A DNA stretch of 64,000 nt from a candidate division WOR-3 bacterium (lineage in GTDB: Bacteria > Hydrothermota > Hydrothermia > UBA1063): assembly GCA_039803305.1 (NCBI GenBank), contig JBDRYG010000001.1:5-64004 (forward strand), in the 5' to 3' direction. The notes below the pieces were generated by a model. It saw only the letters and a list, made by a program, of their open reading frames with translations. It searched no databases and was not told where the DNA came from. The position numbers and the translations under genes are program-made. Below, piece by piece: positions 4,601-64,000 of this stretch. Each line of letters begins with the position of its first letter. The first letter of the stretch is position 1.

Positions 4601-4890
4601 TAAAAATCACTCCAAGTGTTTTCTCACCATTTTTAGGAGAGGCATTAAGAATAGAAGTATCCGGACCCGACAATGCAGTTTACAACCTGAAAATTTACAA
4701 TTCTAACGGTAGACTAGTAAAAACAATAGCTAACGGCAAAACATCTCCCTTCGTTACAGAATGGAGAGGAACTAATGAAGAAGGTGCTCAGCTCTCACCA
4801 GGTCTCTACATACTACTTCTTGAATATATAACCTCCGATGGAAAGACAGGAAAATTACAGAAGACTGTAGTCTTATCAAAACCTAAGTAA
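1648..4890 (+). CDS. Large secreted surface protein: signal peptide, three OB-fold-like repeats, Ig-like beta regions and a T9SS C-terminal sorting domain
   Basis: Signal peptide MRWFLTILLFVIPTASKA. Repeat motif GVVTA...FIQD...GGIxVY...GxVxEYxGxTEI occurs three times (about aa 40-110, 490-560, 800-870). C-terminal LKIYNSNGRLVKTI...GLYILLLEY matches the Por secretion tail pattern. Start overlaps the lnt stop (ATGA). Confidence 0.6.
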   Translation: MRWFLTILLFVIPTASKAQSIFPIDSIQGYGPSSPYVNRTVTTVGVVTATVQDWTRYIRGFFIQDADAPWHGIYVYTGNLTVNVGRGDSVMVTGRVQEYYDLTEIVPSSSSDIIIIKKGVRIPKPIKVTCAEINTEPYEGVLVRVDSVTVINSNVGNYQFQIQDPQGNTALVQNCSGFSYNPSNNDFIPSIVGIDYYSYGAFKIVPRGNEDLIFSGDGTGHFYFINNIIATDEEKEVLLQVSGDSPFQINAVKLLLPQGFQLTGTIILEGDGFQNATFSITQDTIIITGTQITETRTGIIKFTKLLAPSIPGIYAFQVFTLSQSSFRAVAHPPKLNVLSIVGGGNVAITPLIIPKNTQTQINIAISNIFGTLRQVKIVLPSVAIGWDRRVTLIGEGVSTAIVQFAEDTIIITNATIDSMRPASIVFDNFSFLSDSSPLAQFTILTGTQDSVGPVQNQPKVFIALEDTTVKMKYFHIPLTQSFLLGKTVMVKGIVSGVIGDRTYVQDSTGGIIIYRGPALTPNTVVKLIGQYNEYRNSAQLYSASLIANFGVSSIQPDSLEFPPQEIHEGRLVKIFNVSPPDGVTYFIPDSALIFKDSLNREYRVYISSSTDLAYKPIPQGKVDILGCVYQFDANYNIQPRGTKDIIAKGNGTGSFLLHPSYTYYDSTRNINLLVSSLYSPIKSIELRVTGAYIDTVIPVSSGFYNPVVDSYFRDTASLYLKISGGIELTEDTITLVGLRPLSNVEAISFSIKTSVDSGGFLSPVLTDPVLYVGTPIGYARRNGPDGSTPEFLNKQFTVIGVVTAPPYIFSTTRTSMYIQDETGGINVYYAGSLINFNEGDLIRVKGTILQYNGLTEISPASPQDFVLLGQGFPFDTLKLRPGEPLSENLEGLLIQVEGTCDNIPYSSGSGKAFTIYNGLTPIDIYVYNTTSIDLSNVTNGNVYRITGVVGQYDATIPYTSGYQLLPRYQKDIEFIQTTVTPVVSIKITPSVFSPFLGEALRIEVSGPDNAVYNLKIYNSNGRLVKTIANGKTSPFVTEWRGTNEEGAQLSPGLYILLLEYITSDGKTGKLQKTVVLSKPK

Positions 4891-24172: not shown

Positions 24173-25123
24173 TTAGTAAGCTCCCGCCATCTTTTTCAAA
24201 ATTTCAATTCTCTTCTCAATGGGTGGGTGGGTACTCCACAAGGTTTTCCAGAAAGAGACTTTTTTCTTTACATCTCTCTTTGAGGGTTCAGTAAAAAATA
24301 GATGTGCAACCTGCTCCTTAACCTTCAGCTCGTATGGATAGTTTGCAATTTTTTCCAGTGCCGATGCCAAAGCAAGAGGATTCCTTGTAATCTCAACAGA
24401 ACCTGCATCGGCCAGATACTCCCTCGCACGAGAAACGGCAAGGGATAGGATCATTCCTATAAATTTGGCTATCACAAAGATCACGAACAATGCGATGGAT
24501 GCGAGGAGCCACATAAGAATTAGCTCATTCCCTTTCCTTGATCTTACCGATCTTGCTACTTGGGAAGCAACAAACAAGTTTACCTGTGCGAACACGACGA
24601 AAGCTACAAAGGTACCGAGAAGCACTGCAGTAAGCATAGCATAGAGGATGTCATAGTTTTTTATGTGAGAAATTTCATGGGCAATAACTCCCGAGAGTTC
24701 CTCTCGGCTCATCATATCCAAAAGGCCAGAAGTAACACAAATTTTACCGTTTTGGGGACTCCTGCCAGTTGCAAAAGCATTAGGGACATGAACATCCATA
24801 ACATAAATCTCTGGTTTGGGTATCCCAGCAGCAATGGAGAGTTCCTCAACTAAATTAATGAGCATTCTCTCCTTATAATTACCCGGGTTCACAGGTCTTG
24901 CACCGACTAACTTCAAAATCTTCTTATCGCCTCTTAGATAAGCTGTAATAGTACGGATAACTGCGACTGATAACAGAGATAGGGTAAAAACGGGTATCTC
25001 AGCCTTTATAGCTTTATCTAAAAATATTCCCAAGAACAAGAAAAATATAATGAGCAGTGATACTAAAACAATACTTTTTCTCTTATTCTTATTTGCAAGA
25101 GAAACAAAGTCCAGTGCAGCCAT
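24173..25123 (-). CDS. htpX: HtpX-type M48 zinc metalloprotease (paralog 1)
   Basis: HEISHIKNYD HExxH motif, N-terminal TM helices. Confidence 0.8.
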   Translation of the reverse strand: MAALDFVSLANKNKRKSIVLVSLLIIFFLFLGIFLDKAIKAEIPVFTLSLLSVAVIRTITAYLRGDKKILKLVGARPVNPGNYKERMLINLVEELSIAAGIPKPEIYVMDVHVPNAFATGRSPQNGKICVTSGLLDMMSREELSGVIAHEISHIKNYDILYAMLTAVLLGTFVAFVVFAQVNLFVASQVARSVRSRKGNELILMWLLASIALFVIFVIAKFIGMILSLAVSRAREYLADAGSVEITRNPLALASALEKIANYPYELKVKEQVAHLFFTEPSKRDVKKKVSFWKTLWSTHPPIEKRIEILKKMAGAY

Positions 25124-25138
25124 AACCTGCTCACCTCC

Positions 25139-26092
25139 TCACAAAACCCCTGCCATTTGTTTTAAAATTGCAACCCGCTTTTCTATTGGCGGATGGGTGC
25201 TCCAGAGGTTAGCCCACAGGGAATCCTTTTCGGAAAGGGAACTTTTCTTTGGATCACTGATAAAAAGGTGGGAAACGGCATCACTTACCTGCATCGGTCT
25301 TGTGTAATTGGCTATCTTCTCTAAAGCCGATGCAAGAGCTAAAGGATTCCTTGTGATACTAACAGAACCAGCGTCTGCCATATATTCCCTCGCCCTGGAA
25401 ATGGCAAGGGCCATGAGTCTCCCTATGATCGCAGCAAATATAACCACTACAAGGAGAATCAGCCACAAAAGAATTTCTCCACCTCCGCTGTCTCTATCTC
25501 TCCTTGCCCTTCTACCACCCCAGTAAAGGTTAAACCTGATAAAGTCAGCAAGAATAACAATTGCACCTACGAGAACCGCAACCATCGTCATTGTAAGTAT
25601 GTCCCTGTTTTTCACATGACTGAGCTCATGAGCCATAACCCCTTCTAATTCTTCCCGATTTAACAATTTTAAAAGCCCTGTAGTTGCGCATACCGATGCA
25701 TGCTTTGGATCCCTGCCTGTGGCAAAGGCGTTGGGAGAAGGCTCATCCATAACATAAACCTTCGGCATGGGAAGTCCAGCTGCAATACTTAGCTCCTGCA
25801 CGACATTTACAAGCTGCCTTTCTTCGTAGTCAGAAAGATTTGGTTCTCTTGCCCTGACAGACGCGAGGACAATTTTATCCCCCCAGTAATAGGACACTAA
25901 AGCCTGGAACAGCGCCAGGATTACTGCTAAAAATGTATAAAAGCCCCCGCCCCCAAAGAAATGATCGAGAAGCCTGCCAATAAGGTACAAAATCACAAAA
26001 AGGGTAAGGACTAAAAGAAATGTTCTCCTTTTATTCCTTGAAGTGATCTTTACGAAATCAAGGGCACTCATAAATAACACCTCCTTTCTCAA
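25139..26092 (-). CDS. htpX: HtpX-type M48 zinc metalloprotease (paralog 2)
   Basis: HELSHVKNRD HExxH motif; end-to-end collinear with paralog 1 (e.g. ITRNPLALASALEKIANY shared). Confidence 0.8.
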   Translation of the reverse strand: MRKEVLFMSALDFVKITSRNKRRTFLLVLTLFVILYLIGRLLDHFFGGGGFYTFLAVILALFQALVSYYWGDKIVLASVRAREPNLSDYEERQLVNVVQELSIAAGLPMPKVYVMDEPSPNAFATGRDPKHASVCATTGLLKLLNREELEGVMAHELSHVKNRDILTMTMVAVLVGAIVILADFIRFNLYWGGRRARRDRDSGGGEILLWLILLVVVIFAAIIGRLMALAISRAREYMADAGSVSITRNPLALASALEKIANYTRPMQVSDAVSHLFISDPKKSSLSEKDSLWANLWSTHPPIEKRVAILKQMAGVL

Positions 26093-26733
26093 AACTCAAC
26101 CCTAACCCCACCCCTCTCCTGGGGGAACTCAAGAAAAGACTCCAACTTAAATCCAAACATTTTTGCTACTAAATTAGAAGGAAAAGAAAGGCAAAGGGTA
26201 TTAAGCCGTCTCACACAGTCATTATAGTACTGTCTTGCATAGGCTATTCGGTTTTCAGTGCTTATTATCTCTTCCTGCAAAATCATAAAGTTCTGTGATG
26301 CTTTAAGTTCGGGATAGTTCTCCACAATAACAAGAATCCTCTTTATGATATTCGAAATGCTACCTTCAATGCTCCCCTTCTCCTTCATGTCAGTAACTGA
26401 AATTGCTCTGGTGCGTAATTCAGCGATTTTTTCGAGAAGCTCACGCTCATGTTTCATATAGCCTTTAACCGTTTCCACAAGGTTCGGGATAAGGTCGTAT
26501 CTTCTCTTGAGCTGAACATCAAGTTGAGAAAAAGCTTCCTTCACTCGCACCCTCCATCTTACCAGCGCGTTATAAGTAAGGAAAACATAAAATGTGATAC
26601 AAACTATTATGATTACCAATACATGGGTCCACTGCATAGTTAATATAATAGTCCCGTCTGCTTGATTTTTCAATATCATCTTCCTACAAATCAGTTTTAT
26701 CCCTTTCTGGTTCCAACACGCTCCTTGTAACAC
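26089..26733 (-). CDS. lemA: LemA family membrane protein; true start likely the internal Met near 26637 (MQWTHV...)
   Basis: TM helix followed by YNALVRWRVRVKEAFSQLDVQLKRRYDLIPNLV, characteristic of LemA; 4-nt overlap with the downstream htpX. Confidence 0.7.
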   Translation of the reverse strand: MLQGACWNQKGIKLICRKMILKNQADGTIILTMQWTHVLVIIIVCITFYVFLTYNALVRWRVRVKEAFSQLDVQLKRRYDLIPNLVETVKGYMKHERELLEKIAELRTRAISVTDMKEKGSIEGSISNIIKRILVIVENYPELKASQNFMILQEEIISTENRIAYARQYYNDCVRRLNTLCLSFPSNLVAKMFGFKLESFLEFPQERGGVRVEF

Positions 26734-29153: not shown

Positions 29154-32100
29154 TTACTTCGCGAGTATTAGCTTACTTGTGAAAGTCTTCTTAGGAGTAA
29201 TCATCTTCACAATGTAGACTCCAGAACCTACCGCTGAACCTCTTTCGTCTTTACCATTCCATCTTACAGTATGGTAACCAGCCTCTCTGGTGCCCTTCAC
29301 AAGAGTCGCCACTTTCTGACCGGTGACAGAGTAAATGCTTATCTCCACTTCGCTTCTCTCTGGTAATGCATAAGCAAATTCAAAGCCCCTTGAAGCAGAT
29401 GAGAGACTCTTCGCATTAAACGCAAATGCCTTCGGCTTCAGATCAGTAATGGAAGTAACTTCAAAGGAAATATATCCAGTTTCCGGAAATCTTGAAGGAT
29501 TGCGCCACGCTGAATTATCAAGGGCAACGAAGTAAAGGTCTACATTATCCCCGATGTTAAGACCCGGAATCGTGTAATAATAAGTGGAACCAACTATGCT
29601 ATCATTTGTTGCAAAAGCAAAATCTGCACCATTAATGGAATAGTAAAGAGTATCACGATAAATCCCTGAAGGATCAGTAATTATAACACTTATCCAGATA
29701 TTGTTTACACCACCTGTATCATAAGCGAAGGCGGAGAACTGTGGACCAACAAAGTCAGTAGTAATACTTACCTCCGTTGAGTAAGTCATCGTATCTGGAT
29801 TTACATAATCCATCCTCACCACATAGAAGTATTGGGTTTCATGTTGAATCGTGTAGTCTGTAAATGTTATGTCACTGGTAGCACCAAGAACATCATAGGG
29901 TCCGCCAGAGGTAGTCCCCCTTAAAACCGTGTATTTTTCAATGTATTTTGTGGTACCCTCATCTTCCACTTTACCTGTAATGGCATAACGGACTAAGGCA
30001 GGGTTTCTCTTGGCATTGGAAGGTGTATGATTCGCCACATATGCTTTACTGCGTGGGAAGTAGGTAACTACACTCCTTATAATCCAGTCGAAACCAACCC
30101 AATCATACCAGGTGCTGGAAGAGGCTTCAAAATATGTGCTCCTGTTTGTATTAGATCCAGCATCACTTGTGGGATATGGTGCATTCGTAGCTGTCCACTC
30201 TATTCCAACATGATAATCACCATTTACCATTATATTGGCGGAACTTAGATCCAGCCTCAGATAATTAGGATACACGGCTGGTGAGGTTATAAGGGTATCA
30301 AAGAGGACCTCACCGGGTATTCCATTGTTGTCTGCATATATCTTTACATGGATGGGGGAAGCTGTGCCAAAAAGCAGTGCTACTACACTGTCAACCCTTG
30401 CAGGTGTATATTGAGGAGTAAATCTTACAGCAACTACATCGCCAGGATAAAATCCCGTAAAGTAGTACGCAACTCCACCGTAAATCCTCAAGCTCTGTCT
30501 TGGTCTTGCCCAGCCAAGTCTTACTCCGGGATCAGGGTCTCTCACTGCACCTATTGAAGGTGTTCCCGCATCATAAGCAATTAGTTTCCACCAGGCACCG
30601 TGTCCCTGCCACCCATTCCCGTTTACATCCCCTACAGCAAGGTAGCCATCAAAGAGAGTACCCGCAGGACGACCCGGAATTTCAACCAATATCGTATCAA
30701 TTCCCGGTTCAAAATCCTGTGAGAAGGATACTATTACAGTATCATTGACAACTGCAAATGCCTCCACACTGAATGGGGAATCATCACTAACAACAATAAT
30801 TAATGTATCTGGACCTGTATTGTAAGTATATGTGGGTGTTCTCAGAGTCTGGACCATAGGAGGTGTCGTGTCGGGTGCAAAGCTCACACTAAAGTCATCA
30901 ACCCACCAGTAGTACTCATCCCTTGCACCATAATGGAAGGCAATTCTGAAGTACTCTGCCGAGCCAATTCTGGGGATTATGTGAGGTGTTAAGTCCACCG
31001 AGCGGTATCCACTGTCGGACTCATTTGAATATTTCGCAAGTTCAATCCAGGAATTGCCGTCATCGAAGGATATTAAAACGCGGCCTGAATCTAAAGTAGA
31101 CGTTGAGTAGTCTCTATACCAGTGCCAGTAAGAAAGGGTGTATGTACCGTATCCCGGAATCCTTAACCTTGGAGAAATAAGCCAATCATTTTGGTTTTCT
31201 ACGGGTGAAAAATAGACCCTTGCAACGGTTCTCGCAGGTGTTGCTGCAACAAATCTGTGCCAGTCATTATTGTTTACCGTAGGAACTCCCTCATCACCAC
31301 CGTCAATTATTTTCCAGCCTCCAAATGGAGGATTTATGGAGTTCTCCCATGCTTCGTCAAAGTTATGGGCATATGGCAAATCTTGAGCATAGGGCCAGAC
31401 ATACAGGGTAGTTGATACAGTATCATTTTCAGGAATTGCATCTCCTGCTAATTCAACTCCAGCATAAAGAGTAATTAAGCCAGTATCTGGTGGAACAAGA
31501 GGCTCCTGGAAATTATAGGTCATAATCATTCCTGCAGGTAAATTCCCCGTCCAGGTCTCAAAAACCGTGTCCACACCACCAAGGGTGTAAAACAGAGTAA
31601 GGGAAGTAATTGGATTCAATCCGGAGTTTTTGAGAGTTATAGAGACTGAATTATTATCACCCTGAATTACAGGTTTGGGAACATTTACAGAAAGAATCTG
31701 GGCATCAGTATCAGCAGCTGTGGGTTCAGTTACAAATACCCTGACGGAATCAATATACATGTTATTACCATAAGCACTTTTCGCTCTAAAAGCCACATAA
31801 AGCTGTGTTCCACCCAGAAAGTCGCCAATCTCAACCTCCTCCGGTGCCCAACCTGCGGTAGCACTGTATCTCTGATACCCCTGCAGTGTTGTAAAGTTAG
31901 TTCCATCAAGAGAGTATTCAACATATATGGAGTCATAACTTGTTGAGTATCCGGGGTCATGGTACATGTAGAACCTCAACTTAACTTTTCTTGAAACAGG
32001 ACCGACATTTATTACTGAGGTTATGAGGCGGGCTTGGGAACCTGCACTTGCATTGTAAGATGGATATCCAGCCATAGCGGGCGCATCAAGGGGCGTGCAA

Positions 32101-33794
32101 GTGGGGTTAGAACCTGAGGTATATCTCCCCCAGTTGTAGGAACCGCTTATTATCTGCCTTGTCCATCCAAGAGGTGGGAAATCTGGTGGAAAGAATGTGG
32201 ATGCAGCTACGGTAGAATCATCCCATAATTCAACATATAGTTTAGCTGTATTATTGTTATGGTAATCATCAGGATAAACTCCTACCTGTAAGGTATCAAA
32301 GCCAAGATTGGAAAAATAAATGTGTACCGGCATTGAGACCACAGCGTATTCGCCGGGATTTAATGCCACAGGATATGAAAAACCTTGAGATGCACCCACA
32401 TTTACAAATGCATAACCTAAATCAACCGAGGAGACGGGTGTATTTCCCGAGTTAACAACCACAACATAGATCGAATCTGTAACACCGCGTTTTAATACAG
32501 GAGCAATTCTTCTAGCATCTAAAACACATAGGTCAGAGTTAAATATTCTTTGTTCCATTTCCACAATGTGTCCACCGCAGGTAAGCACAAGCTCATTACC
32601 AGGTCTCCAACGGTTTACATCCGCAATCTTGACACCGTAATCGGCAGCTTCAGCAATCTTGGGTAAAATCCCAACAAGTGGCCTTCCAAAAGGAGAGTAG
32701 GCAAACCAGAGGGAAAAGCTAGTATTAGTAGTTCCTGTATTTGTTAGGACAACTTCTTGTCCTGGAATTTCTCTAAGGAAATCCCCTATTTCTATTTCAT
32801 TATTTCCCGCTATTCCCCAGGTGCTGTAAAGTGCATAGGCAACTCCGGAAAATGCACTTCCCGTCCAGTTCCATACCGAAAGCTGATAGGAAGTAGAGCC
32901 GTGCACAATGCAAACCTCAGGCCCAGGCATTGCGGGATTTATGTCGCCAATGGCGATATCATTGACACTCGAAAGCCCCGTATATATAGTTTGAGTCTGC
33001 CACGAAGTTCCATTCCAGTAAGCCATGGCAAAATCTGACCCACCACCAGTATAAACTTCATTTCCAGGTAAATCAGGATTTACATCCCCTATTGCAACTG
33101 CTCTATATCTCTGTGTCCTTCCCGTAAATGTTACCCTGACTGTATCAAAGGATGTCCCATTCCACTTGGCGATCATGAAGGCGGAAGGATTATTATTTGC
33201 CACGTTAAATACAATATCCCTTGCTACACCATCGTTGTCCGCATCGCCTATTACAATATTATTGATATAATCTCCAGAACCTACTCCAATACTATCCCTC
33301 GCCACCCAGTTAACCGCCCCAGGATCCCATTCAAACCAGCGAAGCCATATTTTTCCGGCAACAGCAGCATTATCCGCAGTCAAAATATCGGTATACTCGT
33401 CTCCATCCACATCCCCGATACATACCGCATGCTCTGTAGCGCCCGATGGGAAGGAATATGGAGTTTCTATCCTGAACTTCCTCGTTCCAAAAGCCACACT
33501 TGAGGTGTCAGTAGCAATAATTAAATACCTTGTTCCACCACTTTGAACCGATACAACCCTTATAGTATCGTCACTTAAGCCCTTAAATTGTGTCCCTACA
33601 GCTACCTGTCTCGTTAGGTTTGCTGAAGAACCATAGAATATATAGTTTGTATCAATCAAAGGAGCAGGAACCTTGGACATACTGCCCACCCATATAGGGG
33701 TTTCAACAGGTATGGGGGGCACATCATCAACCTTTGCTTTCTGGGCAGTTGCCATACCCAGAAGCAATATCAACACTATAAACCCTTTAGGCAT
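29154..33794 (-). CDS. Very large secreted protein with FG-GAP/integrin-alpha-like beta-propeller repeats, multiple beta-sandwich domains and a T9SS C-terminal sorting domain
   Basis: Signal peptide MPKGFIVLILLLGMATAQ; repeated xIGDVDGDxxxD / IGDADNDG / IGDVNPDLPGNEV / IGDINPAMPGPEV calcium-binding-like FG-GAP motifs; tail EISIYSVTGQKVATL...GVYIVKM. Confidence 0.6.
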   Translation of the reverse strand: MPKGFIVLILLLGMATAQKAKVDDVPPIPVETPIWVGSMSKVPAPLIDTNYIFYGSSANLTRQVAVGTQFKGLSDDTIRVVSVQSGGTRYLIIATDTSSVAFGTRKFRIETPYSFPSGATEHAVCIGDVDGDEYTDILTADNAAVAGKIWLRWFEWDPGAVNWVARDSIGVGSGDYINNIVIGDADNDGVARDIVFNVANNNPSAFMIAKWNGTSFDTVRVTFTGRTQRYRAVAIGDVNPDLPGNEVYTGGGSDFAMAYWNGTSWQTQTIYTGLSSVNDIAIGDINPAMPGPEVCIVHGSTSYQLSVWNWTGSAFSGVAYALYSTWGIAGNNEIEIGDFLREIPGQEVVLTNTGTTNTSFSLWFAYSPFGRPLVGILPKIAEAADYGVKIADVNRWRPGNELVLTCGGHIVEMEQRIFNSDLCVLDARRIAPVLKRGVTDSIYVVVVNSGNTPVSSVDLGYAFVNVGASQGFSYPVALNPGEYAVVSMPVHIYFSNLGFDTLQVGVYPDDYHNNNTAKLYVELWDDSTVAASTFFPPDFPPLGWTRQIISGSYNWGRYTSGSNPTCTPLDAPAMAGYPSYNASAGSQARLITSVINVGPVSRKVKLRFYMYHDPGYSTSYDSIYVEYSLDGTNFTTLQGYQRYSATAGWAPEEVEIGDFLGGTQLYVAFRAKSAYGNNMYIDSVRVFVTEPTAADTDAQILSVNVPKPVIQGDNNSVSITLKNSGLNPITSLTLFYTLGGVDTVFETWTGNLPAGMIMTYNFQEPLVPPDTGLITLYAGVELAGDAIPENDTVSTTLYVWPYAQDLPYAHNFDEAWENSINPPFGGWKIIDGGDEGVPTVNNNDWHRFVAATPARTVARVYFSPVENQNDWLISPRLRIPGYGTYTLSYWHWYRDYSTSTLDSGRVLISFDDGNSWIELAKYSNESDSGYRSVDLTPHIIPRIGSAEYFRIAFHYGARDEYYWWVDDFSVSFAPDTTPPMVQTLRTPTYTYNTGPDTLIIVVSDDSPFSVEAFAVVNDTVIVSFSQDFEPGIDTILVEIPGRPAGTLFDGYLAVGDVNGNGWQGHGAWWKLIAYDAGTPSIGAVRDPDPGVRLGWARPRQSLRIYGGVAYYFTGFYPGDVVAVRFTPQYTPARVDSVVALLFGTASPIHVKIYADNNGIPGEVLFDTLITSPAVYPNYLRLDLSSANIMVNGDYHVGIEWTATNAPYPTSDAGSNTNRSTYFEASSSTWYDWVGFDWIIRSVVTYFPRSKAYVANHTPSNAKRNPALVRYAITGKVEDEGTTKYIEKYTVLRGTTSGGPYDVLGATSDITFTDYTIQHETQYFYVVRMDYVNPDTMTYSTEVSITTDFVGPQFSAFAYDTGGVNNIWISVIITDPSGIYRDTLYYSINGADFAFATNDSIVGSTYYYTIPGLNIGDNVDLYFVALDNSAWRNPSRFPETGYISFEVTSITDLKPKAFAFNAKSLSSASRGFEFAYALPERSEVEISIYSVTGQKVATLVKGTREAGYHTVRWNGKDERGSAVGSGVYIVKMITPKKTFTSKLILAK

Positions 33795-51839: not shown

Positions 51840-54728
51840 TTGACTGAATATGTTATTAAACCTATAATTTTACATAACTTGGAGGGCATGATGCGCAGTG
51901 AGGATAGGTTAAAGTGGATCATTTTTGCAATAATATCCTTCGGAATGTGGTTACTCTTCTTCCTGACAACAGCACCAACGATTGTCTTCTGGGATGTAGG
52001 TGAGTTTTTAGCATGCTCAGCTATATTTGGCGTTCCTCATCCACCAGGAACACCTCTATATGTACTTTTGGGACGATTTATGACGATCCTTCCGTTACCT
52101 TTAGATCAACTTTATAAACTTATTTATCCCCATTCTTTTCCCGTAAATACTGTGCTCAAAATAACTTTGATTGCAATGGTCACAGGTGCATTAACAGCCG
52201 GTTTTGTATATCTCATACTTTTCGATTTAGTAAGGCTTATATTTAAGGAAACACCACCCATTCTTGCCCATATAGCCGGAATATTTGCAGGACTTATGTC
52301 CATGCTTGCAAAAGTCAACTGGGAGAATTCCATTGAGGCTGAAACTTATACACCATCAAACTTTATTATTGTAGCCTTAACATGGCTTGCTTTAAAGTGG
52401 TATAAAGAAAAGGATGACCCTGCCTCAACGAGGTATTTAATATTCTCTGGATACATACTTACGGCAGGGATAGGATTTCATTTGACCTCTTTTGCATTCT
52501 TTCCTGCCCTTTTACTTTTTACCTTTGTTATTAAAAAAGAACTATACTTAGATAAATTAACTATAGGACTTCTTGGGTTGACTTTCTTCCTACTTTCATC
52601 GCTGCAAATTGCCTATGAACCTAGCACTTTAGGATTCGCTGTACTCATCATAGGCATAGCTTTGCTGACATATTATCTTTTCACCACATCCTTTAAAAGG
52701 CTTAAATCATCGGAAACACCTTATGAAATAGCGTGGGTAATTCTTGCAATTATTTATATCGCAGGTCTTTTTACAAAAAGCCCTTATCTGATTTTGGGAC
52801 CCGCAATTTTAATCTCCATTTTATTCTATGTTGAGACTAAAGCTTACAGAGACTGGAAGGGCCTTGCTGTAATCTTCATGTTTATCGGTTTTTTACTGGA
52901 AATCACAATGGTACTACGAGCAATCCATAATCCATACATAAATGAGGCAGATCCTTCTACTTTCAAAGCGTTCATGGATGTATTGACAAGGAAACAATAT
53001 GGTCCTATGAATATGCTTCCCAGAAAGATTCCTTTGGTTGAACAACTTGGAAACTACTGGGTATACTTCTCATGGCAATATCAGCAACTTCTGATCCCAA
53101 TAACAATACTTGCCATTTTTGGAGTTATAATCCACATTACAAGTGATAGAAAAACCCTGGCACTTGTTGGTTTTACCTTTTTAATTCTGAGTCTTGGATT
53201 CCTCTGGTATCTCAATCTAAAAGATTCTCCTTCACAGCCGGTTAATCCTCTTAACCTGAGAGAAGGCCTTACAGAAGTAAGAGATAGAGACTATTTCTAC
53301 TCAGGAGCCTACATTTTCACTGCACTCTATGCGGGCCTTGGTTTATTCATGCTATTAAAACTTATGTTTGAAAATATGAAGAAAAAGGCACTAATTCCTA
53401 CCACTTTTGGTGCATTTGTCACAGCGGGAGCCACTTTTGGTCAAATTTATGTCTATTATCCTCAGATTGATAGACATGGTAACTATTTAGCTGAGGATTA
53501 TGCGTACAACCTTTTGATTTCGCCAGGATCGGAGGAAAAATGTATTTTATTTACCAATGGTGACAACGACACTTTTCCACTCTGGGCAAATCAAACAGTT
53601 CTTGGAATTGGTAAAAATGTTATCATCGCGAACATGAGTCTTCTCAACACCAACTGGCACATATACCAGATAAAAAAGCAAGGAGCGCCGATAAGTTTCC
53701 CTGATTCTATTATATGGAAGCTTCCGCCGGTTTTCCCCACAATGGATGGCAGTGTAATGTACCTTGTCGACCTAATGATTCGAGATCTGATCGCAACTTC
53801 AGCAGGTTATACTACAAACGACTATATAACAATCAATCCAGCAAAAATTTTCCCAAGGTATGGGTTTGAAAATGTGGACATTAAGATCCCTCGGGTATAT
53901 CTTTTAAGTAAAGAAGAGTTTGCAAGAGAAGTAATTGAAAAGGCTGACAGCTTTAAAATACCGATATTTTTCTCCATGACAGTTTCTTCCCAACATTACG
54001 ACGGGTGGAACAGTTATCTAAGATTGGAAGGAATGGCAATGAGGGTAATGAATAGACCATTAAAGACGTTGAATGAGATTAAGGAAGGGATTGACCTACA
54101 AAGAACTATTTACTTAACAAGAGCAGGAATGCCGTTCCGGGAGTACATTGAAAAATACGGCGAAATAATTCCACCATTCGAAAGCTACAGATACAGAGGG
54201 GTATTTAACAGAAAAGTATACAAAGATGACAACCAAGAGAGAATGATAAGGAACTATGCAAGTGTATGTTTTAGAACTGCCCTTTATTTCGAAAATGAGG
54301 GTAATTTAAAAGAGGCAAGAGATGAATGGGATTTCGCGAGAGAGCTTATTAAACAAGTTCGACTTGATCAGTCTGCAATTCAACGAGAATTACCTTTCAT
54401 TTACTACAAAATTGCGGATCTCTCCTTGAAAACGGGTGATTATAAAAAGGCTATTGAGACCATAGACGAAATTAGTGAATCCTTACAAATCAGTACTTTT
54501 TATGTCATAAAAGCTAAAGCACTTCTCGGCTTGGGAAAACTTGATGAGGCAATCTCCAATCTCGAGGCAGCAGTGCAACTCAATCCACAAGACCTTGAAG
54601 CGTACCAAAATTTAGCAGAACTTTATTTGAAAAAAGGTGAACTAGGAAAAGCAAAAAAGATTATTGATGAAATTTTAAAAATTGACTCCACAAACAGGTG
54701 GGCAAAAGAAATGGCAAAAACTTTTTAA
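51840..54728 (+). CDS. DUF2723/TMEM260-like polytopic membrane protein (predicted GT-C fold glycosyltransferase) with C-terminal TPR repeats; the likely true start is the ATGATG at about 51888
   Basis: N-terminal WDVGEF...HPPGTPLY DUF2723 hallmark, at least 10 TM helices, C-terminal TPR-like repeats (LGLGKLDEAISNLEAAVQLNPQDLEAYQNLAELYLKKG); the ORF track begins at a TTG, and GGAGGG precedes the ATGATG. Confidence 0.65.
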   Translation: MTEYVIKPIILHNLEGMMRSEDRLKWIIFAIISFGMWLLFFLTTAPTIVFWDVGEFLACSAIFGVPHPPGTPLYVLLGRFMTILPLPLDQLYKLIYPHSFPVNTVLKITLIAMVTGALTAGFVYLILFDLVRLIFKETPPILAHIAGIFAGLMSMLAKVNWENSIEAETYTPSNFIIVALTWLALKWYKEKDDPASTRYLIFSGYILTAGIGFHLTSFAFFPALLLFTFVIKKELYLDKLTIGLLGLTFFLLSSLQIAYEPSTLGFAVLIIGIALLTYYLFTTSFKRLKSSETPYEIAWVILAIIYIAGLFTKSPYLILGPAILISILFYVETKAYRDWKGLAVIFMFIGFLLEITMVLRAIHNPYINEADPSTFKAFMDVLTRKQYGPMNMLPRKIPLVEQLGNYWVYFSWQYQQLLIPITILAIFGVIIHITSDRKTLALVGFTFLILSLGFLWYLNLKDSPSQPVNPLNLREGLTEVRDRDYFYSGAYIFTALYAGLGLFMLLKLMFENMKKKALIPTTFGAFVTAGATFGQIYVYYPQIDRHGNYLAEDYAYNLLISPGSEEKCILFTNGDNDTFPLWANQTVLGIGKNVIIANMSLLNTNWHIYQIKKQGAPISFPDSIIWKLPPVFPTMDGSVMYLVDLMIRDLIATSAGYTTNDYITINPAKIFPRYGFENVDIKIPRVYLLSKEEFAREVIEKADSFKIPIFFSMTVSSQHYDGWNSYLRLEGMAMRVMNRPLKTLNEIKEGIDLQRTIYLTRAGMPFREYIEKYGEIIPPFESYRYRGVFNRKVYKDDNQERMIRNYASVCFRTALYFENEGNLKEARDEWDFARELIKQVRLDQSAIQRELPFIYYKIADLSLKTGDYKKAIETIDEISESLQISTFYVIKAKALLGLGKLDEAISNLEAAVQLNPQDLEAYQNLAELYLKKGELGKAKKIIDEILKIDSTNRWAKEMAKTF

Positions 54729-54741
54729 TTAGGAGGTAAAA

Positions 54742-55869
54742 ATGGCTCACGCTTATACACCGGGTTTGAAAGTTACGAGAAAAACAATTTTGAGGAAAGA
54801 AAGAAGGCTTCCATTACCGGGAGAGGTGATAGTAAAAGTCGGCGATAAGGTTAAAGCCGAGGATATTGTCGCCAAAACGGAATTACCCGGTAATGTTCAG
54901 CCAATAAATGTTGCGGGGCTCCTTTCAATTGCACCGCAGGAAATAGAGAGCGTAATGCTGAAAAAAGTTAATGAATTCGTTAAAAAAGGAGAACCAATAG
55001 CTGAATCTAAAAGCTTTTTTGGGCTTTTTAAAAACAGTGTTACATCTCCAGTAGACGGTATTATCGAGAGTATTTCGAATATAACGGGACAGGTAATTTT
55101 AAGAGAACCACCAATACCAATTACAGTAAACGCATATATCGATGGAGAAGTAAAGGAGGTAATACCTAACGAAGGTGTTGTTGTGGAAACGGTTGCTAGT
55201 TTCATCCAAGGAATATTTGGAATAGGAGGCGAGACCATAGGTGAAATTTATGTAGCTGCCTCAACTCCAGATGAAGAGTTAACCGAGGAAAAGATAAAAG
55301 AAGAAATGAAAGGTAAAATTGTTGTAGGTGGCAGTTTTGTGACTGCAGCAGCCCTAAGAAAGGCGGTATCCTATGGTGTAAAGGGTATTGTAGTAGGTGC
55401 AATTGATGACAAAAATCTAAAAGAATTTCTTGGCTATGACATCGGTGTCGCTATTACAGGAAATGAGCAAAAGGGCATTACCCTGATGATAACAGAAGGT
55501 TTTGGAAAACTTGCTATGGCAAAGAGAACTTTTGAACTCTTTAAAGAGCTAAACGGTAAAAAAGCTTCTATGAATGGTGCAACGCAAATAAGAGCAGGGG
55601 TAATAAGGCCTGAAGTTATAGTGGCTCTCGAAGGCGAGACCTACGAAGCGAAGGAAGAAGCAGAAGAACTTAAAGAAGGACTTGTAGTCGGGACCATGGT
55701 AAGGGTCATAAGAGAGCCTTACTTTGGCAGGATAGGTAAAGTTACCGCCCTCCCGCCTGAACTAAGAGTAATTGAAACTGAGGCAAAAGTCAGAGTTTTA
55801 GAGATAGAATTTGATGATGGTAAAAAAGTAATCGTTCCCAGAGCCAATGTGGAGATAATCGAAGAATAA
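54742..55869 (+). CDS. Hypothetical protein with an N-terminal barrel-sandwich-hybrid-like region and a central Rossmann-like segment; function unknown
   Basis: VIVKVGDKVKAEDIVAKTE...TSPVDGIIESISNITGQVILR resembles the biotinyl/lipoyl-like (RnfC_N / NqrA_N-type) fold; GKIVVGGSFVTAAALRKAVSYGVKGIVVGA glycine-rich beta-alpha-beta; 13-nt gap after the DUF2723 gene. Confidence 0.3.
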   Translation: MAHAYTPGLKVTRKTILRKERRLPLPGEVIVKVGDKVKAEDIVAKTELPGNVQPINVAGLLSIAPQEIESVMLKKVNEFVKKGEPIAESKSFFGLFKNSVTSPVDGIIESISNITGQVILREPPIPITVNAYIDGEVKEVIPNEGVVVETVASFIQGIFGIGGETIGEIYVAASTPDEELTEEKIKEEMKGKIVVGGSFVTAAALRKAVSYGVKGIVVGAIDDKNLKEFLGYDIGVAITGNEQKGITLMITEGFGKLAMAKRTFELFKELNGKKASMNGATQIRAGVIRPEVIVALEGETYEAKEEAEELKEGLVVGTMVRVIREPYFGRIGKVTALPPELRVIETEAKVRVLEIEFDDGKKVIVPRANVEIIEE

Positions 55870-55881
55870 TAGGAGTATCAA

Positions 55882-57087
55882 ATGATAAGAGATAATAAAC
55901 TACAGGTTGCAAAAATTGTTAATAGAATTGAGGAATCAGCATCATTCTCAGTACTCGGAAAGGCTAAAGAACTGGAAAAAAGGGGCGAAAGGGTAATCCA
56001 CCTGGAGATAGGTGAACCCGATTTTACTCCACCTAAAGAATCAATAGAATCTTTAATAGAATCCTTGAACCGAGGTGAAACACACTATACGACAGCACAG
56101 GGAATTATCGAATTACGGGAGGAAATAGCAAGATATGAAAAAAGGTTCCGAAACATAGATATTTCACCTTCTCAGGTCGTTATTACCCCGGGAGCTAAGC
56201 CTATGATTCTCTTTGCGCTCCTTTCCGCAATTAATCCCGGTGAAGAGGTCCTCTACCCTGATCCAGGCTATCTTTCTTATAAGAGTCTCATCAGATTTAT
56301 GGGGGCAATTCCTGTACCTTATAGGTTGGATAAAAACCGAAATTTTGCTATTGATTTTGAAGATCTAAGGAGAAAAATCACTAAAAAAACGACTTGCATA
56401 ATCATAAATAGTCCATCCAACCCAACGGGGATGGTCCATACGAGAGAAGAACTTGAGGAGATTTTAAAAATCGCTGAGGATCATAATCTTCTCATAATAT
56501 CTGATGAAGTATACTCACGCATATATTTTGATGGAAACCAGCATATCAGCATTATGAACCTCACCGATAATTACAGCAACATAATCCTTATAGATGCCTT
56601 CTCTAAAACCTATGCAATGACAGGTTTTAGACTTGGCTACGGTATTGTACCCAAAGAGCTTGTCAGCGCAATAGTTAAACTAATTCAGAACTCATTCTCG
56701 TGTGTTCCTGAGTTCGTTCAAAGAGCAGGTATCACTGCGCTGCAAAAAGGAGAATATTTTATAGACAATATGGTTTCAGCCTTCGCTGAAAGAAGAGACA
56801 AAATGTTCGAAATTCTAAGCCAAGTAAAAGGACTCAAAGTTCACAAGCCTCAGGGATCATTTTATTTCTTCCCTGAAATTCTCGTAAATATTTCTTCCGC
56901 AGACTATGCTGATTATGCTTTGTCTAATTACAAAATTGCACTCCTACCCGGGGAAGCTTTTGGCGAAAACGGAGAAGGACACATAAGAATTTCTTTTGCT
57001 AATTCCCTTGAAAACCTTCTGGAGGCTGCCTATAGAATCGCAGAGAGTATAGAAAAATTGGAAAAAGAGCGAGGATTTAAAGCTTAA
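55882..57087 (+). CDS. Class I/II PLP-dependent aminotransferase (aspartate aminotransferase-like)
   Basis: SKTYAMTGFRLGY PLP-lysine motif, SPSNPTG, 401 aa. Confidence 0.75.
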   Translation: MIRDNKLQVAKIVNRIEESASFSVLGKAKELEKRGERVIHLEIGEPDFTPPKESIESLIESLNRGETHYTTAQGIIELREEIARYEKRFRNIDISPSQVVITPGAKPMILFALLSAINPGEEVLYPDPGYLSYKSLIRFMGAIPVPYRLDKNRNFAIDFEDLRRKITKKTTCIIINSPSNPTGMVHTREELEEILKIAEDHNLLIISDEVYSRIYFDGNQHISIMNLTDNYSNIILIDAFSKTYAMTGFRLGYGIVPKELVSAIVKLIQNSFSCVPEFVQRAGITALQKGEYFIDNMVSAFAERRDKMFEILSQVKGLKVHKPQGSFYFFPEILVNISSADYADYALSNYKIALLPGEAFGENGEGHIRISFANSLENLLEAAYRIAESIEKLEKERGFKA

Positions 57088-57553: not shown

Positions 57554-57904
57554 TTACTCCAAAAGCTCCCTAATTTCCTCTTTACCCTTTTCAAGGTCTC
57601 TAAGTTGTTCTTCATCATTTCTCAGAAGCATTTCCAGAAACTCTCCAACATGCACTTTCTCCTCGTGCGCGACATCCAGCAGAACCTTCTTTATATTTGG
57701 ATTTTCAGTGATACTTGCTAACTGCTCATACAGATTAATAGCATCCAGCTCCGCAATGATGGCCAGCCTTAATATTTCCCTATCCTTTTTGGCTGCATCA
57801 AGATCTTTTATCTCCCCTGGGTTCTTAGACAGCATTATTCCCTCCTTTTTCATGTGTAAATTATAAACTAACGTAAGCCAAATAATTGAAAATAATTTAA
57901 CCAT
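57554..57904 (-). CDS. Small ferritin-like (four-helix-bundle, diiron-type) protein; start probably the internal Met (MLSKNPGE)
   Basis: ELDAINLYEQ ... HEEKVHVGEF paired E/ExxH ligand motifs spaced as in ferritin-like/rubrerythrin-like domains. Confidence 0.45.
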   Translation of the reverse strand: MVKLFSIIWLTLVYNLHMKKEGIMLSKNPGEIKDLDAAKKDREILRLAIIAELDAINLYEQLASITENPNIKKVLLDVAHEEKVHVGEFLEMLLRNDEEQLRDLEKGKEEIRELLE

Positions 57905-63472: not shown

Positions 63473-64000
63473 TCACCTCACTTTAACAAACTTTACCTCA
63501 CCAACTTTTCCTCCGCTCTCTATACGCAAATAGTAGACCCCTTTCGGTAAATAATCTACCGTAATTTTCCAATTATTAAACTCACCCTTTTTCACTAGCC
63601 TTCCGTTCACATTGTAAATCTCGTATTTACCACTCTCGGCGTTAGTCATCACAACCTCGCTACCCACGATGGAATATAATTTTTTGTTTTTGGCAAGCAC
63701 CTCTCTCACTCCTATTCCCCTTGCCTTCACAAAGCTCATAAGCCCTATTACATCCTGAGTGCGCATATAATAAAGTGGAAATCCTAACAATACTACACTG
63801 TCTCCAAATATCACTCCACATGCCCTCCCCTCAAATACCTCACTATTACTGTATGAATCAAAATGCAGTATCACATCTCCACTACTCACCCTGTACGCCT
63901 CTATACCTTGCAACCTCCCTCCCCAAGACGGCAATATCCTACTAGGCTCTACCCTCACCTCTAACCCGTATTCATCACTATAACCCCTCACAAAATCAAT
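63473..64000 (-). CDS. C-terminal fragment of a T9SS-sorted secreted protein (gene continues beyond the window end)
   Basis: Tail YEIYNVNGRLVKKGEFNNWKITVDYLPKGVYYLRIE matches the Por secretion C-terminal domain; no signal peptide at the in-window Met, so the true start is upstream of 64000. Confidence 0.5.
   Translation of the reverse strand: MDFVRGYSDEYGLEVRVEPSRILPSWGGRLQGIEAYRVSSGDVILHFDSYSNSEVFEGRACGVIFGDSVVLLGFPLYYMRTQDVIGLMSFVKARGIGVREVLAKNKKLYSIVGSEVVMTNAESGKYEIYNVNGRLVKKGEFNNWKITVDYLPKGVYYLRIESGGKVGEVKFVKVR

Follow-up and report, generated by a model that had tools for sequence, protein, structure and literature searches.

Gene A of the locus analysed here is a new and true bacterial representative of a known family, the DUF2723/TMEM260-like GT-C glycosyltransferases, within a lineage-specific gene arrangement. 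The locus lies in a 64 kb stretch of DNA (the window) from a hot-spring WOR-3 bacterium, where gene A is followed by genes B and C. The best explanation of the whole, and a likely one, is a single transcription unit of three functionally unrelated genes. Gene A would supply a TMEM260-like GT-C enzyme, gene B a protein otherwise linked to a MutL-type ATPase, and gene C a housekeeping aminotransferase.

Layout of the locus

Genes A, B and C are co-directional on the + strand, with open reading frames where the preliminary description had placed them (Table 1). The gaps it had given, 13 nt between A and B and 12 nt between B and C, were exact on recount. Each holds an RBS-like TAGGAGG or TAGGAG, one before B and one before C. 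There is one promoter-like site for the unit, followed by GGAGGG and then the ATG at 51888, and no terminator-like site was found in the + strand intergenic gaps. The 962 aa earlier assigned to gene A do correspond to an open reading frame from TTG 51840. This codon was rejected as the start because its TTGACT forms the -35 hexamer of the promoter-like site, and because homologues and public gene calls of gene A measure 942-946 aa. For these reasons, the real start is most likely ATG 51888, with a protein of 946 aa.

Table 1. Features of the three-gene locus, in positions of the window.
Feature	Position	Strand	Description or basis
Predicted sigma-70-like promoter of the A-B-C transcript	51840..51868	+	TTGACT-17-TATAAT, 11/12 matches
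Gene A, ORF from TTG	51840..54728	+	962 aa
Gene A, from probable start ATG 51888	51888..54728	+	946 aa; TMEM260-like (DUF2723, PF11028 + PF28495) GT-C glycosyltransferase
GT-C transmembrane core, gene A residues 1-527	51888..53468	+	AF2 helices, hydropathy, 9rql alignment, invariant columns
Periplasmic alpha/beta (Rossmann-like) 'palm', gene A residues 534-760	53487..54167	+	AF2, alignment, invariant TNGDNDT motif
TPR array, gene A residues 781-945	54228..54722	+	AF2 model; nine helices
Gene B	54742..55869	+	375 aa; predicted soluble
Gene C	55882..57087	+	401 aa; predicted class I/II PLP aminotransferase (AspAT/AlaAT-like)

Gene A and the TMEM260-like family

The DUF2723 identity proposed for gene A was borne out by Pfam. 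PF11028 (TMEM260-like, DUF2723) matches residues 36-217 with an E-value of 6.1e-29 and 101.5 bits against a gathering cutoff of 24.2, and the motifs WDVGEF and HPPGTPLY are present. The assignment to PF28495 (TMEM260_2) is taken from database records of near-identical and homologous proteins, the family being recorded for a 99%-identical protein (P0121), for the window's own contig gene and for all homologues. A family profile (A2) searched against the PDB found human TMEM260 (9rql) as the sole non-TPR match, at an E-value of 1.1e-30, and phmmer aligns gene A residues 354-608 to TMEM260 residues 250-490. The close GT-C clade was covered through contigs encoding relatives; a metagenome scan for GT-C relatives, used for family context, returned mostly distant homologues of 24-37% identity.

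In the AF2 model of gene A (pLDDT 91.6, pTM 0.88), some 15 long helices precede residue 527, and about 11-12 strong TM segments stand out by hydropathy, in line with the earlier count of at least 10 TM helices. The membrane core has the GT-C fold. Within it, D36 and H51 lie in periplasmic loop 1, E152 in the SIEAETY loop, R368 and Y371 in the long loop that follows TM11, and R467 ahead of TM14. The Rossmann-like domain comes next (~534-760) and the TPR array last, an order read from the AF2 model. Many TPR families of Pfam match residues ~800-944, where the preliminary description had seen a TPR tail. The TMEM260-type architecture that it had proposed is thus found as a GT-C core, a Rossmann-like domain and TPR.

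The HMMER alignment to 9rql pairs D36 of gene A with D52 of TMEM260, H51 with H67, E152 with E144, R368 with R264, Y371 with Y267, R467 with R355 and D559 with D441. None of these residues of gene A varies among 32 homologues (27-83% identity), and D559 lies in the TNGDNDT motif. In TMEM260, D52, H67, R264, Y267 and R355 bind Dol-P-Man, and their mutants lose or reduce activity; D441 is the proposed catalytic base, for E144, only a position in a loop close to the active site is described (bioRxiv 10.64898/2026.03.17.711096). The donor-binding residues and the general base of TMEM260 are all present in gene A, identical and invariant in the 32 homologues.

The fold, the homology and the residue conservation of gene A are direct observations; its donor, sugar and acceptor are inferred. 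By homology, the core of ~13-15 helices would bind a polyprenyl-phosphate hexose on the periplasmic face via D36, H51, E152, R368, Y371 and R467. D559, in the periplasmic Rossmann-like domain, would act as the general base, and the C-terminal TPR array may hold an extended acceptor polypeptide. The predicted reaction is the inverting transfer of one hexose from an undecaprenyl-phosphate-sugar to Ser/Thr. Mannose is the most likely sugar, and the acceptors would be exported proteins which are still unfolded; both the protein acceptor and mannose are extrapolated from what human TMEM260 does. The 64 kb window showed no polyprenyl-phosphate-sugar synthase, and the literature searched holds no characterised bacterial DUF2723/GT117 enzyme. 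Proteins with a T9SS-type C-terminal domain, described earlier as dense in the window, do occur there, although only three were found (1648-4890, 29154-33794 and a partial ORF at 63473-63991). Their role as glycosylation substrates is speculation.

A rather unlikely alternative gives gene A an acceptor other than protein, for example lipid A/LPS, a lipoglycan or an exopolysaccharide, and the TPR tail a part in complex assembly. The enzyme would then work in the manner of ArnT or the mycobacterial arabinosyl-/mannosyltransferases. On the preferred reading, transfer to protein, WOR-3 and related bacteria are predicted to O-hexosylate periplasmic proteins. Only in 2023 was TMEM260 identified as a protein O-mannosyltransferase, in a paper which gives the bacterial homologues one sentence, and its structure dates from 2026 (bioRxiv 10.64898/2026.03.17.711096). 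At this locus, a deep-branching bacterial lineage retains the complete catalytic apparatus of TMEM260: the residues that bind the donor and the luminal general base, together with a Rossmann-like palm and TPR fingers. This makes the bacterial members reasonable and tractable models for the family.

Gene B, gene C and the gene arrangement

Gene B had been described as having a barrel-sandwich-like N-terminus and no confident family, and the searches agree. RnfC_N (E 4e-5, 23.9 vs 25.6 bits) and Biotin_lipoyl are both sub-threshold in Pfam, and no NCBIfam model matches. The protein combines a barrel-sandwich hybrid, a swivelling beta/beta/alpha-like domain and a KOW/SH3 domain. Neither a TM segment nor a signal peptide is present, and it is predicted to be soluble and cytoplasmic. 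The N-terminal domain resembles those of NqrA and RnfC, which are peripheral membrane-complex subunits; gene B falls outside the RnfC/NqrA proteins themselves, for which RnfC_N above threshold and the downstream Rnf/Nqr domains are required. There are 94 invariant columns among 34 B proteins, which are 60-93% identical and come from WOR-3 and from other lineages (e.g. Eisenbacteria). Gene B is 55-73% identical to the B proteins of 80 loci, many of them MutL-linked, and is by this measure their orthologue.

In genomes from other phyla, a MutL/GlmL-like ATPase (PF13941, E 2e-130) lies directly upstream of B in 41-42 of 79 loci. The two are fused in a protein of 995 aa (P0265) and another of 1003 aa (P0343), and most of the phyla sampled have B homologues immediately behind a PF13941 protein or fused with one. 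The pair is accompanied by small proteins and a DUF6754 membrane cassette, the typical cluster in many candidate phyla being s160-s140-MutL-B-[DUF6754-TM210-TM282-TM218]n. Adjacency or fusion to PF13941 is a property of the B family, not of this locus. No PF13941/MutL gene was found in the 64 kb window or in the 10 kb that precede its start in a closely related assembly with the same genes. None from the window's lineage was recognised among the 120 best MutL homologues; one distant Hydrothermota relative (MAG) has a stand-alone MutL. The MutL/GlmL-type ASKHA ATPase is the widespread, and probably the ancestral, partner of B. Literature on DUF6754, PF13941 and TIGR01319 yielded nothing relevant to the MutL-B pair. 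In one WOR-3 subclade, B would have been relocated directly behind the GT-C gene and co-transcribed there. It most likely keeps its MutL-linked role rather than acting as a glycosylation factor, since the conserved residues are unchanged in the GT-C-linked clade.

The adjacency of A and B is kept in seven loci outside the window's family that have no flanking genes in common. The GT-C proteins there have diverged to 34-44% identity, and the stop of A and the start of B abut or overlap. Because the pair persists despite shuffled flanks, the co-transcription of A and B in the subclade is regarded as real. Such persistence is a classic signature of a selected gene pair, and a functional link within the clade is conceivable. 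B could be a cytoplasmic subunit which regulates or assembles the GT-C enzyme in the Hydrothermia-type WOR-3 subclade, docking on membrane proteins by its barrel-sandwich domain and elsewhere serving the DUF6754 cassette with MutL. Besides the pairs with unrelated flanks, at least seven in number, about 19 further candidate GT-C/B pairs favour this proposal, the latter as indirect evidence. So do the membrane-protein genes (DUF6754, TM210, TM282, TM218) that follow B in other phyla, and the likeness of its N-terminal domain to NqrA and RnfC. However, the arrangement arose once, being confined to a single clade of the B tree that corresponds to one WOR-3 subclade. No B lies beside GT-C relatives at 36-39% identity, nor in 79 of 80 more distant loci, and B is equally conserved where no GT-C adjoins. 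Genes may also stay neighbours simply because the gap between them is very short. The established GT-C enzymes (PMT, ArnT, PglB, TMEM260) are not known to need a cytoplasmic partner or ATP, which also counts against a true functional pair. On balance, such a pair is unlikely.

A broader proposal, which is doubtful, holds that B and the MutL/GlmL-type ASKHA ATPase form the cytoplasmic part of an undescribed but widely conserved membrane-associated system in FCB-type phyla, from which B was recruited to the TMEM260-like GT-C in Hydrothermia-type WOR-3. If true, no other GT-C glycosyltransferase would have been the first to show a cytoplasmic partner dedicated to it. As a side lead, the 375-aa family and the MutL/GlmL-like ATPase form a highly conserved pair, which in many candidate phyla stands beside a DUF6754 membrane cassette that is itself repeated. 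This cluster is possibly a more original lead than gene A.

The preferred reading, a shared transcript without shared function, extends to gene C. Its earlier identification as a PLP aminotransferase holds, with PF00155 matching over the full length (residues 37-384, E 4.8e-71). In NCBIfam, gene C scores highest against aspartate, alanine and LL-DAP aminotransferases, the best being the archaeal-type aspartate aminotransferase, which is below cutoff; it falls below every equivalog cutoff (e.g. 330 vs 550 bits). PF01041 (DegT/DnrJ/EryC1) matches only in part (residues 74-208, E 2.8e-10), and a DegT/DnrJ/EryC1 sugar aminotransferase was rejected in favour of the full-length PF00155. Gene C is predicted to be a class I/II amino-acid aminotransferase, AspAT-like. 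It would be a housekeeping enzyme that became part of the unit only within the genus or family of the window.

The preliminary description had proposed a dedicated three-gene module for protein glycosylation or envelope-polymer modification, and had set phylogenetic co-occurrence of A, B and C as one test; no such co-occurrence was found. In none of the 80 genome loci that carry a B homologue does gene C adjoin B, and the seven more distant A-B loci have no C homologue behind B. All three genes stand together only in close relatives (four genomes), whose GT-C proteins are 73-83% identical. As the divergent upstream flank PEPCK-M24-GGDEF is syntenic there too, the trio amounts to plain synteny. 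Among 67 loci of more distant DUF2723 genes, 20 have a GT2 neighbour and 11 an LPG_synthase_TM neighbour; methyltransferase, GT4 and NAD-epimerase genes also lie beside such genes. The 64 kb window holds no other glycan gene, and no adjacent GT2 or flippase-like genes of the kind that make up a three-component GT2, flippase and GT-C module. A module in which C makes an amino sugar and B is an accessory factor could appeal to the tight packing, the single promoter-like site, the missing internal terminator, the trio in four related genomes and the weak partial DegT match on gene C, but it is highly improbable against this neighbourhood record, the different glycan contexts of the family, the amino-acid type of gene C and a predicted cytoplasmic B whose partner in other phyla is MutL and not GT-C. 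Tight gene spacing in small genomes is no evidence of a module.

Comparison with known systems

Gene C is like the class I aminotransferases of the AspC/AlaT/DapC type (PF00155) in its full-length PF00155 match and its NPTG motif. The usual partner of B belongs to the GlmL/MutL family (PF13941, TIGR01319), an accessory protein of glutamate mutase. Unlike the GlmL/MutL of that enzyme, the MutL-B pair occurs without B12 mutase genes.

Of the families with which the preliminary description had compared gene A, TMEM260/DUF2723 was upheld by PF11028 and 9rql, and PMT was not. No match to PF02366, PF13231 or MIR was found in Pfam at E <= 0.01, and membership of the PMT family was rejected on the lack of PMT, PMT_2 and MIR. 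The similarity to PMT/POMT (GT39; yeast Pmt1/2/4) is at the level of the fold only. Gene A has a Rossmann-like and TPR module in place of the MIR domain, and its predicted general base belongs to the soluble domain, a feature shared with TMEM260, and not to the loop-1 DE pair of PMT/POMT.

TMTC1-4 (GT105) and the bacterial PMT_2+TPR proteins are like gene A in joining a GT-C core to a TPR array at the C-terminus, although Pfam gave no sequence-family match of gene A to them. The TPR array of TMTC1-4-type proteins presumably recruits protein acceptors. Unlike gene A, the TMTCs are not known to have a Rossmann-like palm domain bearing the TNGDNDT motif.

The closest comparison is with human TMEM260 (CAZy GT117; PDB 9RQL/9RQM/9RQN), a protein O-mannosyltransferase that acts on IPT domains and depends on Dol-P-Man. 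The two sequences have little identity overall: phmmer gives an E-value of only 1e-8, and a profile is needed for 1e-30. Gene A is longer (946 vs 707 aa), with ~13-15 core helices against the 11 TMHs described for TMEM260 and nine TPR helices against a five-helix fold. It would have to use undecaprenyl phosphate as lipid carrier instead of dolichyl phosphate. Both proteins have PF11028 in the N-terminal part and PF28495 in the second part, and they share the GT-C membrane core, the Rossmann-like luminal or periplasmic domain and the TPR.

Layout of the locus

The locus comprises gene A, encoding a TMEM260-like (DUF2723) GT-C protein with a TPR tail, gene B, encoding a 375-aa soluble protein, and gene C, encoding a 401-aa aminotransferase. 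The coordinates of the three ORFs, all on the + strand, agree with the preliminary description, as do the intergenic gaps of exactly 13 nt (A/B) and 12 nt (B/C). TAGGAGG and TAGGAG are found inside these gaps. The window matches GCA_965648845.1 CBFGIL010000001.1, a contig of 1.2 Mb from a MAG of candidate division WOR-3 (Hydrothermia-type), on which the public gene calls are the same as the ORFs called here.

Features of the window discussed in the text
Feature	Position	Strand	Basis or remark
Gene A, ORF from TTG	51840..54728	+	ORF call
Gene A, preferred gene	51888..54728	+	946 aa, ATG start
Gene B	54742..55869	+	ORF call
Gene C	55882..57087	+	ORF call
Promoter-like site before gene A	51840-51868		TTGACT-17 nt-TATAAT
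Promoter-like site toward GGDEF gene	51823-51795	-	TTGATA-17-TATAAT
Rubrerythrin/EncFtn-like gene	57554-57904	-	
LemA gene, two tandem M48 peptidase genes	24173-26733	-	
Secreted protein, DUF5689 + OB fold + FlgD_ig/CHU_C	1648-4890		domain matches
Secreted protein, FG-GAP + FlgD_ig	29154-33794		domain matches
Partial ORF, M28 peptidase tail + Por_Secre_tail	63473-63991		domain matches

The best promoter-like site of the region, of sigma-70 type (11/12 matches), coincides with the opening codons of the TTG-initiated ORF of gene A. As this near-consensus site is followed by GGAGGG and the ATG, the TTG opening the ORF is read as the -35 hexamer. The homologues of gene A are 942-946 aa long (945-946 aa in public annotation), and the gene is taken to begin at the ATG. 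A second promoter-like site, a mirror image of the first, is directed toward the divergent GGDEF gene, and together the two sites resemble a compact bidirectional promoter of ~100 nt. No terminator-like site was found in the + strand intergenic gaps, thus A, B and C are probably a single transcript.

The neighbourhood is unremarkable. On the upstream side, divergent genes encode PEPCK, an M24 peptidase and a GGDEF protein; past gene C come a small convergent ORF, a rubrerythrin/EncFtn-like gene, topA and genes for a HAD hydrolase and a GNAT. Across the remainder of the 64 kb window, Pfam matches indicated housekeeping genes and no further glycan-synthesis gene. The small rubrerythrin/EncFtn-like (encapsulated-ferritin-like) protein is encoded between gene C and topA, with no encapsulin shell gene noticed nearby. 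In the window the two M48 genes come after a LemA gene, and this arrangement has a counterpart in L162 (13447-15553), a locus where the order LemA, unknown gene, M48 lies a short way downstream of a DUF2723 homologue.

Conservation of the A-B-C arrangement

The three genes had been proposed to form a dedicated module for protein glycosylation or envelope-polymer modification. This is not supported, as gene C is not conserved beside gene B, the trio occurs only with synteny of the whole region and the aminotransferase is not of a sugar type. Co-occurrence was examined in 80 genome loci with gene B homologues, each taken with flanks of at most 10 kb. The aminotransferase adjoined B in none (0/80); at one locus a gene C homologue was located 4 kb off on the opposite strand. 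Gene C is indeed a PLP aminotransferase, with a full-length match to class I/II (PF00155, E 5e-71). In NCBIfam it scores best against the aspartate, alanine and LL-diaminopimelate aminotransferases, all under the equivalog cutoffs. It bears no mark of a sugar aminotransferase, PF01041 (DegT) covering residues 74-208 only.

The trio is kept in three related genomes (GT-C 73-83% and B 81-93% identical). These also keep the divergent PEPCK-M24-GGDEF block, which indicates synteny of the whole region, and the same layout of trio and flanks is present in GCA_965648845.1 and two near-identical assemblies. Outside close relatives with the syntenic flank, phylogenetic co-occurrence of A, B and C was not found. 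The supposed module is a lineage-specific operon whose three genes have unrelated functions.

In more distant loci, B was absent beside the GT-C of L162 (39% identical) and L163 (36%). Among 80 metagenome loci with GT-C homologues of 24-37% identity, B followed the GT-C in one (L149). A GT2 gene was immediately downstream in 20/67, and other recurrent neighbours were a methyltransferase, GT4, NAD-dependent epimerase and an LPG_synthase_TM-type membrane protein. The TMEM260-like family does occur in glycan modules; the A-B-C locus is not one.

The A-B pair is more widespread than the trio. A GT-C gene is immediately upstream of B at five of the 80 B loci, all WOR-3 (L001, L002, L004, L005, L018). 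At L161 (GT-C 43% identical) the pair is flanked by unrelated genes, for cation efflux on its upstream side and for a MiaB-like radical-SAM protein on its downstream side. Seven A-B loci outside the family of the window have no common flanking genes, save for a small ORF that two of them share, and the stop and start of GT-C and B abut or overlap. Since the pair persists despite shuffled flanks and divergence of the GT-C to 34-44% identity, the adjacency exceeds regional synteny; it is a clade-restricted arrangement. For ~19 further pairs of GT-C and B homologues the longest contigs are of identical length, an indirect sign of the same arrangement. Two DUF2723 paralogues, P0132 and P0133 (46% and 43% identical to gene A), and the gene B homologue P0065 have longest contigs that are all 25,016 bp (L132/L133-type), suggesting a tandem GT-C duplication beside B in some WOR-3 genomes.

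Gene B and its association with MutL

Gene B has no confident family assignment, as previously noted: the RnfC_N and biotin-lipoyl matches are sub-threshold, and neither an NCBIfam match nor, by sequence or profile search, a relative in the PDB was found. It nevertheless belongs to a very large and strongly conserved family, with >8000 close homologues, 2719 clusters at 50% identity (E <= 1e-3) and 94 invariant columns in an alignment of 34 sequences. Homologues 55-73% identical to the window protein are found in WOR-3, Stahlbacteria, Eisenbacteria, Poribacteria, Zixibacteria, Latescibacteria, Ignavibacteria, Fermentibacteria, Cloacimonadota and Muiribacteriota.

De novo clustering of the neighbours of B (79 loci counted for the upstream gene) identified a ~600-aa ‘MutL’ (PF13941, E 2e-130; GlmL-like ASKHA, TIGR01319) directly upstream in 41-42/79 loci, on the same strand at a median distance of ~40 nt. 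Two natural fusions in the representative library, P0265 (995 aa) and P0343 (1003 aa), contain a full PF13941 MutL domain (~12-489) and a full-length gene B homologue (~621-1002). These Rosetta-stone fusions suggest that MutL and B act together. The fuller conserved order is gcvT-gcvH-gcvP-s160-s140-MutL-B-[DUF6754-TM210-TM282-TM218], in which the s and TM labels denote genes for small proteins and membrane proteins, respectively, and the gcv genes are often ahead of the rest. The four-gene membrane cassette is present in up to three copies per cluster, and its DUF6754 protein has an FN3-like N-terminus. Clusters with MutL, B and DUF6754 are located in L011 (7370-14492), L019-L024, L043, L058, L060, L069, L071, L072, L076 and L080, and their hosts include Eisenbacteria, Zixibacteria, Fermentibacteria, Ignavibacteria and Latescibacteria. 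The gcv, s160, s140, MutL and cassette genes were sought in the window and none is there. Nothing on DUF6754, PF13941 or TIGR01319 was found in the literature searched, and the cluster is apparently undescribed. This highly conserved, uncharacterised MutL-B pair with its DUF6754 cassette across many candidate phyla is the most original observation of the analysis, albeit an incidental one.

In a neighbour-joining tree of B, all GT-C-B loci fall in one clade and MutL-B occurs in almost every other, thus MutL-B is probably ancestral and GT-C-B derived. A distant Hydrothermota MAG (L164) encodes a stand-alone MutL, followed by MerR and a sigma-70 factor, just beyond GpsA. Its proteins are 35-57% identical to those at the start of the window, with partial long-range synteny (PlsY-GpsA-CysS-NMT1-LNT-DUF5689 protein; L164 8001-11080 against window 191-4890 and L169). 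The stretch corresponding to its MutL neighbourhood is rearranged in the lineage of the window. The stand-alone gene in a partly syntenic relative suggests that this lineage separated MutL from B instead of losing MutL.

The stand-alone MutL is one of several points against A and B being a functional pair, a reading that is improbable overall. Their persistence through shuffling may reflect selection for co-expression or interaction. However, a junction of 0-13 nt is hard to break without orphaning B from its promoter, and the adjacency may reflect merely that. Moreover, B is cytoplasmic and just as conserved at loci that lack a neighbouring GT-C, and known GT-C enzymes function without a cytoplasmic or ATP-dependent partner.

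Gene A as a TMEM260-like protein

The identification of gene A as a DUF2723 membrane protein with a TPR tail was confirmed. It matches PF11028 (TMEM260-like, formerly DUF2723; E 6e-29) and TPR families, and PF28495 (TMEM260_2) is annotated in a protein 99% identical to it. Human TMEM260 (9RQL) is its sole non-TPR relative among all PDB sequences, at E 1e-8 to 2e-8 with the single sequence and 1.1e-30 with a 32-sequence profile. The AlphaFold2 model, built on a 32-homologue alignment (pLDDT 91.6, pTM 0.88), comprises ~15 long helices as far as residue 527, then an alpha/beta domain (~534-760) and nine TPR helices (781-945); hydropathy indicates about a dozen strong TM segments. The GT-C core stands on these family matches, the 9RQL profile match and the confident model, and the acidic loop-1 motif is present. 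By every testable sequence and structure measure, gene A belongs to the TMEM260-like/DUF2723 family.

The 2026 cryo-EM study of TMEM260 assigned mannose binding to D52 and H67 (signature motif), Y267 (donor lid loop) and R355 (TMH10), phosphate binding to R264 and the role of general base to D441 of the luminal Rossmann-like domain, with a loop containing E144 near the active site and TPR ‘fingers’ which recruit the extended acceptor peptide (bioRxiv 10.64898/2026.03.17.711096). In the HMMER alignment these residues pair with D36, H51, Y371, R467, R368, D559 and E152 of gene A, respectively. All seven columns are invariant in 32 homologues of 27-83% identity, and D559 sits within an invariant TNGDNDT motif. 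From this invariance we infer the same chemistry, and gene A would work like TMEM260. At the periplasmic face it would transfer a hexose, with inversion, from a polyprenyl-phosphate donor (undecaprenyl-P-mannose or another hexose) onto a hydroxyl group in an extended polypeptide.

Three large secreted proteins of the window carry T9SS-type C-terminal domains. They are plausible clients, in periplasmic transit, of any periplasmic glycosyltransferase; nothing in the present analysis links them to gene A. Two further Por_Secre_tail proteins are encoded ~1.3 kb downstream of the aminotransferase in a relative (L171).

The 2023 paper on the discovery of TMEM260 refers to bacteria only as having ‘distant homologs in bacteria’ (PMC10214176), and no characterised bacterial member was found in the literature searched. 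Gene A differs from the human protein in size and helix number, its TPR array is longer and the lipid carrier is necessarily different. It is not a member of the PMT (GT39) family, as PMT, PMT_2 and MIR matches are absent, although the fold is common to both.
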